From: a virus
Taxonomy: Duplodnaviria > Heunggongvirae > Uroviricota > Caudoviricetes
DNA length: 64,000 nucleotides
Virus record (IMG/VR): IMGVR_UViG_2778261268_000002
Direction: 5' to 3' (one strand)
Shown here: piece after piece, positions 18,253 through 56,007 of the stretch
Position numbering within the stretch: position 1 is the first letter of the stretch
Layout: the number at the start of each line of letters is the position of its first letter
Notes under the pieces: model-generated
Told to the model about the DNA's origin: nothing
What the model saw: the letters and a program-made list of their open reading frames with translations, nothing else
Databases searched by the model: none
Made by a program: the position numbers and the translations under genes

Positions 18253-18902
18253 CAATTGACTATCAGGTACTGCGTGAGGCGGCAGAAAAGGCAACACCAG
18301 ACGAATGGGTCGCATTTATTTCGACGGATACTGGTACTTATGCGGTGCACACGCCCGGTGATGAACGATGTGAAGACGTTATCAAATGGACCGGCTTTGA
18401 TGGACAGAAAAATGCAGAGAACAACGCTCGTCATGTTGCCGCGTTCAACCCAAAGGTTGCACTGGAGCTGCTTGGTGAAATTAAGTGCTTGGAGGACACA
18501 AATATTGATGCCACGTGCCGAATTTCAGAGCTTGAGACTAATCTCGCTGCGCTGGTGGCAGAGAACGCTGGGCTGAAACACGCAATGGCCGTAACTCTTG
18601 AGCATGTGTCGGTCACGGATGCAGGGCAGGCCGGAGTTGCTGCAATGATTATCAACGATGCCCTGCACCACAGCGAAACTCCAGCTACCGATGCTTTCCT
18701 GTCTGAAGTGCGGGCGCAGGGGGTGGATGCTGCTATAGAAGCTGCAAAAAATCTGGTGGCCCAAGAATATGAGTATAAGGATTTCAAAGCGGCGCAGAGT
18801 GATTGCTGTATGCACCCTGGTTCAGACCTGGTAGGGAAGGTTGAAATGACTGAGTGGTTAGTTGACTTTGCTGCCCAGCTTCGCAAAGGAGGCAACCAGT
18901 GA
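18249..18902 (+). CDS. Ead/Ea22-like family protein
   Basis: N-terminal IDYQVLREAAEKATPDEW typical of Ead/Ea22-like prophage proteins. Confidence 0.5.
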   Translation: MTIDYQVLREAAEKATPDEWVAFISTDTGTYAVHTPGDERCEDVIKWTGFDGQKNAENNARHVAAFNPKVALELLGEIKCLEDTNIDATCRISELETNLAALVAENAGLKHAMAVTLEHVSVTDAGQAGVAAMIINDALHHSETPATDAFLSEVRAQGVDAAIEAAKNLVAQEYEYKDFKAAQSDCCMHPGSDLVGKVEMTEWLVDFAAQLRKGGNQ

Positions 18903-19651
18903 GCGAAATTAATTACCAGGCACTGCGTGAGGCGGCGGAACGTGCAATTCCAGCAATGGAACGCCTGTTAATGTTGCCAGCTGATGATGATTTGTTAAGT
19001 GAACAGGAACTTAAAGATTACGGTGTGGATATTGATGCGCTCAACGCCTTCAAATTTCTGACCGGACCAGAAACCGTGCTGGCGCTGCTGGATGAACGGG
19101 AAAGAAACCAGCAATACATAAAACGCCGCGATCAGGAGAACGAGGATATTGCGCTAACGGTAGGGAAGCTGAGAGTTGAGCTTGAGGAAGTAAAACAACA
19201 CGCTGAAGAATTATCCGAAACCAAGGCTGTTCGTAACCAATGGCGGCCAGATATTTGCCCAATAACCGGACGTGCATTTTTCATGTGGATTGAGCATCCA
19301 ACATTGGGAAATGTGCCGACATATGGTGGCCCATTAGATAGTTACACCATTCCAACAAAGGACGGTGACGGTGAGTTTTCATGTGAGCGTTACGATCATG
19401 ATTTTGGCGGTTGGGTAGAAAGCGAATGTCTTGGGTTATATCTGATTGATGATAGAGAACAATGCAGGGTCTACGAACTGGAGGAACGCGTTAAGGAACT
19501 GGATGCTCGGGAAATATCGCTCCCGGAACGTAGCAGCATGCTTCATCGAACAGATTTTCACGATGATTACCAAACGGTAATGGCATACAAAGTTTCTGAA
19601 GTCATCGCTGCAATCCGCGCCGCAGGCATTCGCATCAAAGGAGGTGAGTAA
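18899..19651 (+). CDS. Ead/Ea22-like family protein, paralog
   Basis: GTG start with RBS AAGGAGG; N-terminal INYQALREAAERA paralogous to the upstream gene. Confidence 0.5.
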   Translation: MSEINYQALREAAERAIPAMERLLMLPADDDLLSEQELKDYGVDIDALNAFKFLTGPETVLALLDERERNQQYIKRRDQENEDIALTVGKLRVELEEVKQHAEELSETKAVRNQWRPDICPITGRAFFMWIEHPTLGNVPTYGGPLDSYTIPTKDGDGEFSCERYDHDFGGWVESECLGLYLIDDREQCRVYELEERVKELDAREISLPERSSMLHRTDFHDDYQTVMAYKVSEVIAAIRAAGIRIKGGE

Positions 19652-19827
19652 TGCGTGTGGCATGTATCGGCTTGTTACCGTACCCGACTCGTTTTTGGGC
19701 TTCTGCGCTAATTGCAAAGCCGTATGTCCTGATGGCTGACAACATCATCCCGGCACCAAAGCGCCGCCATACCGGTATTGCAGCGGCACGACGAGCAGCA
19801 AAGAGACGCAGGAGAGCAAAGCGATGA
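19651..19827 (+). CDS. putative small basic protein (58 aa)
   Basis: Below the ORF-track cutoff; ATG overlaps upstream stop (TAATG); Arg/Lys-rich C-terminus. Confidence 0.3.
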   Translation: MRVACIGLLPYPTRFWASALIAKPYVLMADNIIPAPKRRHTGIAAARRAAKRRRRAKR

Positions 19828-20000
19828 AAAACCGTAAGGCAAAACGACTTTTTTTACAGCGACCTGTGCGTGTGGTGGAGCTGGTTATTAGCAACCATAA
19901 GATAGCGGTACTCCATCCATTTGGTCAGGTGGCTTTTGCCGCAAAGCGTAAGCCTACTGCGTCACAGAACAGGCGGAAGAAAGGGTACGCTGTAAGATGA
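19824..20000 (+). CDS. putative small basic protein (58 aa), MKNRKAK family
   Basis: RBS GGAGAG 7 nt before ATG; N-terminus MKNRKAK paralogous to the next ORF; ATGA coupling. Confidence 0.35.
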   Translation: MKNRKAKRLFLQRPVRVVELVISNHKIAVLHPFGQVAFAAKRKPTASQNRRKKGYAVR

Positions 20001-38227: not shown

Positions 38228-41200
38228 TTATGCGTATTGTTGGATGACGGCCAGAACGTCCGCCACGTTGTGTTTTGTCTCGATAATCCACCAGTTACCC
38301 AGGAAATCGCTGTTCTTCGCCTTCGCTGGCAGCCAGCGAGCGCCGAATTTCGCCTTGATTGCGTCTTTCGCACGGAAAAGAACGCCTTTCATGCCTGAGG
38401 CTTCCTGAAGCCCAAATACCTCGCCAGCGGCGAATTTTGGTGCGTACATCATCTCCAGGTCGGCGGTGGATACGCGATAATTCAGACCAAGAGACTGAGC
38501 TATGCTGGTGGCATCACCCTGTATTGATGATAACTCTTCTTGTTTCTCGTTTCTGGCGGCAATTTCTTCCTCCGTGATGTTGCCAAGGGCCAGGTTTATC
38601 CGATCAGCGTCGGCCTGTTTCTCTTCATCGGTGCGCCCGGCAAGAACCGTGTTAATACTCTGCAATATCTCCACATGATTCTTGCGCATGCTGAGCAATT
38701 CCGGCGTAACCTCGTTAAGGTCCACCAGCCCAAGGATGGCAAGGTCGGTAAACATCGATACTAGGTTGTAGGTCATGCGATAGCTGAGTTGCCCATAGGC
38801 TGATGGCAACTGCACCGCATCCATTTTATAGGCATCCATAAATTTAGAGCCGTCGTTTACGACATCCGCAATTGCCGGTGTGATTTTCCCTGTGGTGGCG
38901 GCCTCCCTGATTGCTGTTACCCACGATTGAGTCAGCGCGGCGACTGCATGATTCAGATTGACTTTCCGTTCTGCTGCAATGCGCGCGCTTGCTGCGTCCA
39001 TTGCCTGCTTGATCTCGTCTTTATTGCTGTAAATGCCAATGGTGCCAAACTGTGCTGTGGTGATCTCATAATCTGACGCCCGGAACTCATTGGTACCGAA
39101 AATGGCATTGGTGACTTCAAGTTCAGAATCCCCGTTACGAGTAGCCCCCTGGCTTGTTTTCTCCGGCATTCTGGCGATCGCATCCGCTATTTTCTCCTGA
39201 ATTGCTTCAGGGGATAGCGTATCTCCGTATGACGCGATTACATCGCCATAATTGGAGCCAAACAGTTCAACCAGGAATGCTTCTGCCGAACGGATCTGGC
39301 GGTTATTCCCTTCCGACATCATACCAAGCACCCATTTTGCAATTGACGACTTCAGCGCGCCGTCACGGCGATCCGGGTAAACCGCATGCTTCAGTGGGTC
39401 CGTATAGGTACCAACAAAATCAATGCTATAGCCTGACTCTGTAGTCTGAACGCCGTATGAGTCAGTGATTTTGATCATGCCGCGCTGCTGGAAACGGTAG
39501 AAATCGTCACAGGAAACGATGTCGTTAATCCCGGCGATGGAGACGCCACCACTGATTTTCTGCATAACAGCATCTTCATCGGGAGTTACATCAACCTGTT
39601 TATCCAGCGTCTTCACATCCCAGTTACCAGATTTGGTGCCTTTGAAGGTGAAGATGATCTCCACGTCTGCGCGCTGGCTGTCGAAGTCCAGCGACTTAAT
39701 GCGAACGATATCACCGGCACAATCGTAGTATTGGCCTACACGCCATGAGCGATCGCCGATAACAAGGAACTCACTCGCATGGTTAACCAGGTCAGGATCA
39801 ACATCCAGAATGCCTTTATTTAATGCATCCTCCACCAGCGGGCGCAGGCGTTTGATATCCGTCGCGGCCTTCTGAGTACGGTTCAATAATTTCTCATAGC
39901 GGGAGATGGCTTGAGAGATATTAGCCTTGCGCTGAATGGCGCTTTTCAACGACGCGCGATACTGTGCTAACAACATACGGTCTGTGTGATGGACACTCCC
40001 CCAGCGTGCCTTCCAGTCTGCGTTATCCGCTGCCTTGGCCATTGCCGCCTGTTTGAATTTAGCTACCTCGGCGGTGGTCTTTTCAAGTTCCGCTTTGCTT
40101 CGCTCTAATTCAGCGGTAAGCACCTCCACATCCTCACCAGCTGCGTGCTGCGCCTTGATGTAGTTCTGAAGGTCGATAGTAGCCTGTTCTTTCTGGCGAG
40201 CGCGTTGCGCGGCTTTCGCCTTATCCATTTGAACCTGCATCATTGCCAGACGTTCGCCATCATCCTTAGCGGTATACATCTGCATTTCGATCATATCGTT
40301 GGCGTCGGCGTTCTCCATTTCTGACTTATCTGAACGGAGGATATCGGAGATCCAGCCTGCTTTACGCTTCAGCGTCTTCAGTCGGTATTCATCGAAAGAA
40401 CCCTTGCCGCAGTAGTAGTGAACGCGAACGCTTGCACGGTTGGAGCCAACTCGGGCACCGCGACCGTTTCGTTGCGCAATACTGGCTGGAGTCCATGGCA
40501 ACGTCAGATGATGGATGTCAGTCGTTCCTCGATGCAGGTTGATACCCACCTCTGCCTTTTTGTTGCAGATGATGATCGGAGTCCGGCCCTCCTGGAAGTC
40601 GGCTGCAATCTTTTCCAGACCGCCCAACGACATTTCATTTTGCTGCGCGATATAGGCGTCATACAGAGCCATTTGCTCGTTGTATTTCGCTATCTGTGCA
40701 TCTGTTGGTTCATCCGGTAACTCTTTCGGCGGTTTAACCGCTTTCAGTTTCTTACCGGTTTTACCTGCCTCGGCAACCGTCTGAGCATTCAGTATCCCCA
40801 CCTTTGAAGGTTCAAGGTTAAGAGCATTGCAGATAATGCGCTTGAGCTTCTGGTGCTGCGTTTTTTCATCGGTGAAGATGATTTGCTTACCTTCCGGGAA
40901 AAACTCCTTCAGCGTGGCAATCAGCTTCGCGTATTTGGGCGTAACGGGGTGAGTTACGGTCTGTTCGTCAATGCCAAACCTGGCCAGGCGCTTATTCACT
41001 TCCTGCTCGAACGCTTCCGGAACCTGCAACTGAATAAACTCGCCCTTATCTATCAGGGAGTATTGCGATTGCTGCGTGATTGAATCATCACTGTCGTCGT
41101 CTTCGCTGGTGGCTTGTTTAGGCAAACTGTCTGCCAGCTGCTGCACCGCATCGGCGTACTCCGGCAGGAAACGATAGGTGATCCGGCGATAGTACAGGTC

Positions 41201-45061: not shown

Positions 45062-47792
<2,731 letters not shown>

Positions 47793-47794
47793 CA

Positions 47795-49130
47795 CCCTCC
47801 ACGCCCTGACGGGCGTGGATTCCTGCTACGTTCAGGCTGTCGCCTGAATCATTTCGGTGGGTTCCTGCTTCAACGGACGGCCTGACTGCACCATCCCTCC
47901 ACAGGCAAGTACGGCGTGCCCCGCCGCTAAAATGTTACGAGCGCCGTTTACATCGGCGTTCGCTGTATATCCACATACCTGGCATCTGAATTTACTTTGT
48001 GACAGGCGATTTTCTTTCGCGGTATGACCACAGCACGCGCAACGCTGGCTTGTGTACGCTGGCGGCACTGCCAGTACCTGACCACCATGCCAGAGCTGCT
48101 TATACTCAAGCTGGCGGCGCATTTCATACCAGCCCTGATCCAGTATCGAACGGTTTAAACCTGATTTTGCCCGGACATTGCGACCCGGCTGACTTATCGT
48201 ACCCGCCGCTGACTTTGACATGTGTTTAACCTTCAAATCCTCAATGACAATCATTGCGTGGTTTTTGCTGATGATCGTTGTGACTTTATGAAGGTAGTCT
48301 CTGCGGATATTTGCGATACGGGAGTGCAGTTGCTGTATTTTGCGTTTCTGCTTCTGCCAGTTGTTGCTGAATCTGACCTTGCGGCTTAACTGGCGCTGAA
48401 GTCTCGCCAGCTTTTTCTGGTTTTTCTGGAAACTGTTTACAGGCTCAAAGACTGTGCCATCTGACAGCGTGGCGAGCCTGGCCACGCCAGCATCCAATCC
48501 GACCATTGATGCTGAAGGGTGAGCCGGAGTGGATACTTCACTTTCTGTCTGAATACTGATGTACCATTTACCGCAGGACTGGCTGACAGTGACATTTTTC
48601 ACAATCCCCGTGACCTGCCGGCTGTTACGGTAGCGCATCCAGCCAAGTTTCGGCAGAAAAATACGGCTGTTTTCCTGGTCGAGCTTAACACCCTGCGGGT
48701 AGCGGAATGCATCATTCTGTCCCCGCTTTTTGAATCGGGGAAAAGCCGCCCGCTTCTGGAAGAAATTTTTGTAGGCCCGCTCAAGGTCTTTCAGTGACTG
48801 CTGCAATGGCTGTGAGGGAGAATCTTTAAGCCATTCGGTTTCAGTGTCTTTTTTCCACTCAACCAACCAGGAAGCCATTTTCGTGTAAGGGATGTATTTA
48901 TTCCCGGCCTCATAATTCTCATTCTGAAGTGCCAGTGCACGATTGAAAACGAAACGACAAGCTCCGGCAAAGAGCCTCATTTGACGCTCCTGTTGACCAC
49001 CGGGTCTTAACTGGAATTTAAATGCTTGTAGTCGCTTCATCCCACTATTTTAAACAAAAACAGTTAGGTGGAAAACCACGCCTTATATCCCCTCCCTGAA
49101 GGACGGGATTTTACGGCGCACCGGATAACC
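47795..49130 (-). mobile_element. IS200/IS605-family insertion carrying tnpB only (approximate boundaries)
   Basis: TnpB ORF flanked by subterminal hairpins (CCACGCCC-TGAC-GGGCGTGG at 47799-47818; GGCGTGG-containing imperfect palindrome near 49060-49100); no tnpA. Confidence 0.6.
47832..49040 (-). CDS. tnpB: TnpB (OrfB) RNA-guided nuclease of an IS200/IS605 element
   Basis: 402 aa; RuvC-like split motifs and C-terminal zinc finger CACCGH...CQVCGY; N-terminal region typical of OrfB. Confidence 0.85.
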
Positions 49131-49162
49131 ACCAAAAATAACCCCGGCGGCTTCCGGGGTTA
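49131..49162 (-). terminator. rho-independent terminator for the leftward lysis transcript
   Basis: AACCCCGG-CGGCTTC-CCGGGGTT hairpin; the minus strand reads hairpin followed by ATTTTTGG. Confidence 0.55.
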
Positions 49163-49172
49163 TCGTTAACTA

Positions 49173-49427
49173 TTATCGCCTTCGCCTGCGTGCCATATAT
49201 TTGCGCACCGCGCGGCGTGGACAATCTGAAGCGGTTTCTTTCTGCTGCATCAATCTCGCAGCCATGCTCAAAAATGTCAGGCACAGCCGAAGCCCGGCAT
49301 ATAATAGCGGTTCCAGTGGCCACGTCTCATTGAGCACATATACCGCCATGAAAATCGAGTCGAAAACTATCGCCGCCAGCGATAACTTCATTGTCGAAAG
49401 TCGGCGGAGCTGCCGGAGTTTATTCAT
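49173..49427 (-). CDS. small membrane protein downstream of lyz
   Basis: 84 aa, hydrophobic core, Arg-rich C-terminus; start overlaps the lyz stop. Confidence 0.45.
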   Translation of the reverse strand: MNKLRQLRRLSTMKLSLAAIVFDSIFMAVYVLNETWPLEPLLYAGLRLCLTFLSMAARLMQQKETASDCPRRAVRKYMARRRRR

Positions 49428-55641: not shown

Positions 55642-56007
55642 TTATGCTGCCTCTTTAATGTTGGCGGCTATCCATGCCGCCGTGTGCTGTTTAACCTGGT
55701 CCAGGTCGATGTATGTGCCAACATATTGACTCAAATCCTGCAAGGTACCGATAAATGCATCGGTGCTCTGATCGACGAATTTATCAGCCAGGAAATCAGC
55801 AACCAGTTTTGGCACACCATCATGTACCGAAGGTTGTTTTTCCTCGCCACTACTGCCGCCGGACACACCGTACCCCATCTGTTGCATGATCTGGTCAATT
55901 TCATCGCTGATATCCAGCAACTCCATGCCACTCGCGGTAGCCGCTTTGGACATCAGAGCATCCAACTTATCGCTGAGATCCATTAACTCAATAGCTGATA
56001 GTGTCAT
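55642..56007 (-). CDS. ddrA: small protein of the dar operon (P1 DdrA-like by position)
   Basis: 121 aa, 4-nt overlap with the upstream gene. Confidence 0.5.
   Translation of the reverse strand: MTLSAIELMDLSDKLDALMSKAATASGMELLDISDEIDQIMQQMGYGVSGGSSGEEKQPSVHDGVPKLVADFLADKFVDQSTDAFIGTLQDLSQYVGTYIDLDQVKQHTAAWIAANIKEAA

Follow-up and report, generated by a model that had tools for sequence, protein, structure and literature searches.

In IS608 of Helicobacter pylori, the left cleavage site (C_L) TTAC is read by the guide tetranucleotide (G_L) AAAG, and TCAA lies 10 nucleotides (nt) 3′ of the right hairpin (PMC3201880). Most elements that carry tnpB are non-autonomous, and in the donor-joint model of Meers et al. 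the TnpB-omega RNA complex cuts the donor joint after excision by the transposase TnpA, whereupon recombination restores the element (PMC10055086). A copy of the insertion sequence (IS) IS609 was described in the P1-like plasmid pJIE250-3. It separates the head-processing genes prt and pro from the lysis genes lydE, lydD and lyz, has TTAT as its left and TCAA as its right cleavage site, and spans 18,574-19,913, or 1,340 bp; an IS609-like sequence is also mentioned elsewhere in pSvP1 (Venturini et al. 2019, Sci Rep 9:18861, PMC6906374). Here we analyse a closely similar element in a 64,000-nt stretch of Caudoviricetes DNA (IMG/VR record IMGVR_UViG_2778261268_000002), called the window below. 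We consider it highly probable that an IS609 lacking tnpA was acquired a single time by an ancestor of these P1-like phage-plasmids and passed down with them since, keeping ends on which a TnpA could act together with an intact TnpB and its RNA scaffold.

Boundaries and identity of the element

The window belongs to a P1-like phage or phage-plasmid. Its region 47000-50100 matches P1, P7, RCS47, SJ46 and other Punavirus genomes at 98-99% identity, in two pieces that cover 57% of the query, and alignment to P1 (NC_005856) defines a clean insertion of 1,336 bp at 47789-49124, with 0 bases duplicated or ambiguous at both junctions. On the plus strand P1 reads CCGTTTAA followed directly by ATAACCACC, and the window reads CCGTTTAA, then the insert (TTGACACC...GCACCGG), then ATAACCACC. 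The element itself lies on the minus strand, with its left end at the high and its right end at the low coordinates. Relative to P1 there is no target-site duplication at the junctions, and the insertion stands 3′ of the specific tetranucleotide TTAT (49125-49128, minus strand), which is flanking DNA outside the element and would serve both as left cleavage and target site for TnpA and as the target-adjacent motif (TAM) predicted for TnpB. Sequence matches place the uninterrupted site in P1, P7, RCS47, SJ46 and others. The initial annotation, made from this DNA alone, had seen an IS200/IS605-family element with tnpB only at 47795-49130; its length of 1,336 bp stands, while both of its ends were 6 bp off, and comparison with P1, which it had put forward as the way to define the empty site and target motif, supplied both.

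Element positions 1-62 are 92% identical to the left end of IS609 in Escherichia coli K-12, and positions 86-1336 are 93% identical to K-12 insQ plus the right end, which is enough for the name IS609. The matching K-12 locus is itself annotated as IS609 and contains yncK, a tnpA pseudogene, divergent from insQ ("putative RNA-guided DNA endonuclease"). Matches to the element at 90-95% identity occur in 5,014 of 5,426 complete E. coli genomes. Missing from the window copy is the ~412-bp segment of IS609 that carries tnpA, in whose place full-length relatives in other Enterobacterales have a divergent tnpA of 138-147 amino acids (aa) of the HUH/Y1 type. The Y1 (HUH) TnpA that characterizes the IS200/IS605 family is thus absent from this copy, and a tblastn search of the whole 64-kb window with a relative's TnpA found none either (best E = 1.5), in agreement with the initial annotation; a second tnpB was also searched for in the window and none was found. 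As neither the element nor the window has the tnpA of full-length relatives, the element is, judged from its sequence, a non-autonomous IS609 derivative of the IS200/IS605 family (IS605 group) with tnpA deleted. An intact cognate IS609 tnpA exists in some E. coli, for example ETEC4091.

Transposon ends and the cleavage-site rule

For the analysis of the ends, 134 related loci were collected from genomes and viral contigs. The left end comprises 84 nt (49041-49124, minus strand), with the guide tetranucleotide AAAA at 49109-49112 and an imperfect palindrome (IP_L) at 49087-49109. At the other side lie a right-end imperfect palindrome (IP_R, 47798-47819, minus strand), which doubles as the terminal hairpin of the predicted omega RNA, and the right cleavage site (C_R) TCAA, the last four bases of the element (47789-47792, minus strand), whose plus-strand complement TTGA gives pro a new stop. 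Both ends therefore show the subterminal imperfect palindromes, without terminal inverted repeats, that mark the family. Folded as single-stranded DNA, the stretches at the left and right ends reached z = -4.2 and z = -5.5, respectively, and none of 200 shuffles folded as well, so the subterminal hairpins by which the initial annotation had bounded the element are well founded. Its remark that the right-end hairpin starts 6 nt after the upstream stop is also accurate, with the stem running from 47798 and the pro stop at 47790-47792. Across relatives, 6 of the 9 pairs of IP_R are changed on both sides.

At about 36 distinct insertion sites of the family, TTAT or TTAC always directly precedes the left end, and nearly all aligned members end in ...GGAGGATGTCAA followed by unrelated flanks; the exceptions are a group of SJ46-type phages ending in GTCAC and a few truncated copies. 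Left-end positions 13-16, which lie just 5′ of the foot of the hairpin, hold a tetranucleotide that was compared with the flank (loci L005-L138): AAAA accompanied a TTAT flank in 20 cases and AAAG a TTAC flank in 9, and a single case departed from this pairing, which agrees with the C_L/G_L rule of IS608. This co-variation is, as far as a correlation carries, a natural reprogramming of target specificity like that engineered in IS608. The window copy has TTAT with AAAA, and its TCAA lies 9 nt past the right hairpin. Since its ends are intact, with matching guide and cleavage-site pairs and strong folds, it looks like a competent substrate for a cognate TnpA.

TnpB and its gene

The only long open reading frame (ORF) within the element is tnpB at 47832-49040 on the minus strand, 402 aa plus stop. 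Its product matches HTH_OrfB_IS605 (PF12323), OrfB_IS605 (PF01385) and Cas12f1-like_TNB (PF07282) of Pfam above the cut-offs and the guided_TnpB family of NCBIfam with 389.6 bits (cut-off 100), and residues 3-376 align with the solved TnpB of ISDra2 (8h1j, 8exa) at E = 5e-52. By this alignment the RuvC triad is intact, as D183 (GLDAG), E267 (VIEDL) and D363 (NADVN), and so is the zinc finger, C334-x2-C337 ... C353-x2-C356, which bears out the 402-aa TnpB with RuvC-like and zinc-finger motifs of the initial annotation. In P1-like plasmids RefSeq labels the gene "RNA-guided endonuclease InsQ/TnpB family protein". The ratio of non-synonymous to synonymous substitution rates (dN/dS) against relatives is 0.07-0.16, indicating purifying selection; among the copies at the P1 site there are 15 synonymous and 5 non-synonymous substitutions with no frameshift and no premature stop, and the ORF is open in every copy examined. 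With the catalytic residues intact, the low dN/dS and the open ORF, it is plausible that the nuclease is still active. As to published activity tests of the E. coli IS609/InsQ TnpB, the parts of the literature consulted gave only an "IS609" TnpB among nine purified candidates of one study, with no result stated there.

Two observations on individual copies may be added. In one sublineage (L197, L198 and L199, from pE189-1, pPE15-92K and p15.03CC_1) the stop TGA is changed to TTA at element position 1292, giving an ORF of 404 aa. In another copy at the P1 site (L087), tnpB codons 313-325 carry six substitutions in 13 codons, five synonymous and one His-to-Arg, a cluster that seems to stem from gene conversion by another IS609 copy and not from point mutation.

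Predicted omega RNA, guide and target

The predicted omega-RNA scaffold spans 47789-47960 on the minus strand, its 5′ limit being approximate, and consists of the 3′ end of tnpB plus the 43 nt of the right end. RNAalifold, applied to an alignment of the last 180 nt of 45 non-identical relatives, gave eight helices; of their 48 pairs, 11 show compensatory changes. Cells of the alignment that should be paired are so in 97.4% of cases; shifting the 3′ partners by 1-3 columns lowers this to 36-46%, and none of 500 shuffles reached the observed pairing, the covariation score or the number of pairs changed on both sides. The window sequence alone folds at -82.8 kcal/mol (z = -5.0). One helix is long-range, pairing ACAUUU about 150 nt upstream with GGAUGU just before the terminus, and the lineage-specific A-to-G change GGAGGGTGTCAA keeps a U-G pair in this predicted helix. 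Constraint on the coding sequence was seen as well: over 34 distinct intact tnpB genes, synonymous codon diversity is about 0.35-0.45 for most of the gene and drops to 0.17 and then 0.10 over the final two intervals (codons 371-400). The conserved structure and the loss of synonymous variation in the last ~30 codons fit an omega RNA made from the tnpB 3′ end and the right end, as the initial annotation had expected and had suggested checking by structure prediction.

Conservation among the relatives stops exactly at the right terminus TCAA, beyond which the flanks are unrelated, and for this reason a guide read from the adjacent flank, with the scaffold ending at 47789, also fits the data as had been proposed. 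The guide template would be TTAAACGGGTTGATTGAATT (47769-47788, minus strand), the flanking DNA just 3′ of the right terminus, which is antisense to the last codons of pro. Joining TTAT to this 3′ flank TTAAACGGGTTGATTGAATT restores the uninterrupted pro/lydE junction of the P1 type, so that the predicted target, TTAT plus TTAAACGGGTTGATTG, is the uninterrupted P1 pro/lydE site itself. Empty sites of the P1 type read GGTTAT, the insertion point, and then TTAAACGG(A/G)TTGATTGAATT. Fifty-five such sites were found in IMG/VR (L139-L193), 7 of which match the guide exactly. One of the 55 has precisely the flanks of the filled copies, GGTGGTTAT joined directly to TTAAACGGG, and could be either the ancestral allele or a product of precise excision. 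The six other empty sites with a perfect guide match have GATGG upstream and not GGTGG.

Insertion site and neighbouring genes

The initial annotation had put the element between the putative protease gene and the lysis genes. It does stand at the pro/lydE boundary; the position is not strictly intergenic, since pro and lydE converge and overlap at their 3′ ends and the element falls in this overlap, altering both. At the pro end, the terminal TCAA supplies the third base of the final codon, which changes from Lys to Asn, as well as the new TGA stop. The ORF of lydE, a putative antiholin, now extends over 49111-49323 on the minus strand and takes its last four codons and stop from the left end, so that the last five residues FKRID are replaced by SGAP (P1 ...FWWLFKRID, window ...FWWLSGAP). 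The insertion leaves lydD unaltered. The tnpB gene is co-oriented with lyz-lydD-lydE and comes just after a GC hairpin and T-run at 49140-49161.

This GC-rich hairpin, read from the sequence and assigned no strand, lies between the convergent pro and lydE operons and is kept beside both empty and filled sites. On the minus strand it is followed by ATTTTTGGTGGTTAT, which puts the insertion site within its T-rich tail (hairpin AACCCCGG...CCGGGGTTATTTTTGGTGGTTAT; window 49125-49165, about 5130-5162 in L003). The promoter and terminator scan did not call the hairpin at 49140-49161 as a terminator. It may be noted that the IS609 of K-12 follows a hairpin plus TTTTTAT, and that many other copies follow a T-run plus AT, often behind a hairpin. 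Such siting may reflect a preference for terminator tails, or no more than the abundance of TTAT in them.

Distribution and history

Among complete E. coli genomes, 491 records carry the region and in 446 of these the site is uninterrupted. The call of an insertion, as opposed to a domesticated gene present at this position throughout the P1 family, is borne out by these counts and by the empty sites of P1, P7, RCS47 and SJ46. About 29 records have the element at ≥95% identity (23 of them at ≥99%), and among the matches listed at ≥95% all are P1-like plasmids of roughly 90-120 kb. All filled copies examined are identical in site, in the GGAGGGTGTCAA variant and over 60 nt of 3′ flank, and these shared features point to one ancestral insertion followed by descent. 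Multiple independent insertions at the pro/lydE site were rejected on account of the same shared GGAGGGTGTCAA change and identical flanks.

Copies without tnpA in the same form are also found at other sites, including two more in P1-like genomes, and from this we infer that the form has been mobilised in trans. The window holds at 55645/55646 (gccTTAT, then gctgcctctttaatg) the empty site of a second IS609-like element with tnpB only, which SJ46-type P1-like phages carry downstream of a ddrA-like gene (NC_031129.1, insQ 38271-39479; loci L089-L094, L097-L099 and L102); its left end has diverged and its right end is GTCAC, not GTCAA. A third independent insertion, in P1-like plasmids (L200 1501-2836, NZ_CP183090.1 pCREC447-2; L095), is of the 1,336-bp tnpA-less form, 94% identical, and lies near icd/antirepressor genes after the flank taaatgagTTAT. 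With three sites occupied, IS609-family elements without tnpA have thus inserted into P1-like phage-plasmids on at least three separate occasions.

Relatives of tnpB were also met in other phages. One is in an unrelated prophage, Morganella phage IME1369_01 (L002 3044-4192), where it is annotated as "putative virulence protein", and another is ORF348 of the 8.4-kb filamentous phage If1 (U02303, L123). Both look like TnpB elements that have been mis-annotated or left unannotated.

Proposed mechanism and alternative explanations

The history that we favour would run as follows. A Y1 TnpA acting in trans would have placed the element, as single-stranded DNA, 3′ of the TTAT that lies in the T-rich tail of the pro/lydE hairpin. 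By its sequence the element keeps what a TnpA would need, namely a left hairpin with an AAAA matching TTAT and a right hairpin followed by TCAA, and likewise what TnpB needs, an intact nuclease ORF and a conserved RNA scaffold overlapping the tnpB 3′ end and the right end. From what is described for other TnpB systems, the tnpB transcript would be processed to an omega RNA that carries the flank TTAAACGGGTTGATTG... as its 3′ guide, and TnpB with this RNA would cut DNA in which TTAT is followed by the guide sequence, i.e. the uninterrupted pro/lydE junction. Such a target would arise by precise excision, or would sit in a co-resident P1-like genome of the matching allele, and repair from the filled copy would restore or spread the element. 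In the absence of its own tnpA the element would move only in hosts that supply a cognate TnpA and would otherwise be a passenger. Cleavage of the donor joint and restoration of the element is most likely its function here, by analogy with the model of Meers et al.

Several findings weigh against this account. The position-9 base of the guide is mismatched (A for G, synonymous in pro) in 48 of the 55 IMG/VR empty sites and also in P1. No sign of homing into other backbones was seen among the filled copies examined, all of which have identical flanks. Expression is a further difficulty, as the sole promoter-like match upstream of tnpB in a consensus scan is a weak sigma-70-like site just before the ATG (TTTCCA-16-TAAAAT, 49047-49074, minus strand, 9 of 12 matches, which is not evidence of function), and late transcription of pro would cross the element in the antisense direction. 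In K-12 as in O111:H- 11128 the tnpA of IS609 is a pseudogene, so many hosts cannot mobilise the element. As regards the RNA, the stop change TGA to TTA in the one P1-site sublineage lengthens the protein by two residues and disrupts a predicted pair of helix 7, a hairpin across the stop codon, and an Rfam search at permissive thresholds returned sub-threshold matches only (HgcC, E = 0.025; RAGATH-18, E = 0.05; sot0042, E = 0.1); these fall on the same strand and at the same place as the predicted omega RNA and are taken as a hint only. The covariation of the terminal hairpin could also reflect a DNA hairpin bound by TnpA rather than an RNA. Helices 3, 5 and 7 lie in or across the coding end of tnpB, however, and are therefore not explained by such a DNA hairpin.

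The weak promoter-like site, together with the lack of a tnpA in the window and the frequent decay of tnpA in hosts, would also suit an inert relic, that is, an element inserted once, immobile and without effective expression, which is intact only through its recency (the copies being ≥99% identical) while hitch-hiking on the plasmid. The single site with identical flanks in all filled copies and the small share of P1-like records that are filled (only about 29-40 of the 491 in complete E. coli genomes) are in line with this. Yet the substitutions within the P1-site lineage, 15 synonymous to 5 non-synonymous, are accompanied by no frameshift or premature stop, the ends and the guide/cleavage-site pairs are all intact, and the occurrence of the same tnpA-less form at other sites argues for continuing mobilisation of the form, all of which makes a relic decidedly improbable in our view. 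Its fixed site in a late-gene region, its orientation shared with the lysis operon and the altered C-terminus of LydE could instead be taken to mean that the phage has made the gene its own, either as a nuclease-dead, RNA-guided regulator like TldR or as an accessory to lysis or packaging, and that it has ceased to belong to a transposon. TldR-like proteins are recognised by lost RuvC residues or a C-terminal truncation, along with lost ends, but here the protein is full length with the RuvC triad and zinc finger in place, and both ends survive with matching cleavage and guide sequences. The gene is moreover 93% identical to ordinary chromosomal IS609, and most P1-family genomes do not have the insertion. 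On these grounds domestication was rejected and is in our opinion scarcely credible.

The inherited, TnpA-competent element that we prefer could act beyond its own replicon if the TnpB-omega RNA complex cut the empty genome of a rival, the guide matching the junction in a subset of natural P1-like elements, when a filled and an empty phage-plasmid meet through incompatibility, superinfection or co-infection. We hold this to be unlikely, though conceivable. If it were true, the rival would be excluded, or converted by homing, and the common synonymous A allele at guide position 9 would be a resistance allele. Should the nuclease prove active, the pro/lydE site would provide a convenient natural case of RNA-guided homing or exclusion between competing phage-plasmids.

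Comparison with described systems

The element is not new as such, an IS609 insertion of matching length and position having been published in 2019, and is an ordinary feature. The copy in pJIE250-3 (MN510445) appears to be the same, as its 1,340 bp equal TTAT plus 1,336 bp; the match rests on span, position and cleavage sites. That account gives the IS annotation only, whereas the omega RNA, guide and target, which are not discussed there, are considered here. The TnpB/omega-RNA mechanism is likewise already established and the element is a named IS. What is added is the exact boundaries, the TAM and the predicted guide of the window copy, covariation support for the fold of the omega RNA of the IS609 family, and the co-variation of TTAT/AAAA against TTAC/AAAG over about 36 insertions.

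The K-12 IS609 (insQ/yncK, NC_000913.3 1503161-1504908) resembles the window copy in having TTAT at the left, TCAA as the right terminus and a position after a hairpin with a T-run. The window copy differs from it in three respects: the ~412-bp tnpA segment is missing, a 22-nt junction is present that is absent from K-12 and shared with other tnpA-less copies, and there is one lineage-specific A-to-G change, GGAGGGTGTCAA. Like IS608, the element has subterminal palindromes and makes no target duplication; its left cleavage site is external and is recognised by a tetranucleotide on the 5′ side of the hairpin foot, and the right hairpin is followed after about 9-10 nt by the terminal TCAA. In contrast to IS608, whose target is TTAC with the guide AAAG, the IS609 copy has TTAT with AAAA; and while full-length IS609 relatives have a tnpA divergent from tnpB, the window copy has none. 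The closest parallels for the nuclease are the TnpB-omega RNA systems of ISDra2 and of the Geobacillus ISGst, in which the scaffold similarly overlaps both the right end and the 3′ end of tnpB, the flank provides the guide and the TAM coincides with the target site of the transposase. The TnpB of ISDra2 is homologous over nearly its full length and has the same catalytic residues. The TAM of ISDra2 is TTGAT, whereas TTAT is predicted for the window copy. Unlike both systems, the host replicon here is a phage-plasmid rather than a chromosome, and the nuclease is a predicted one.

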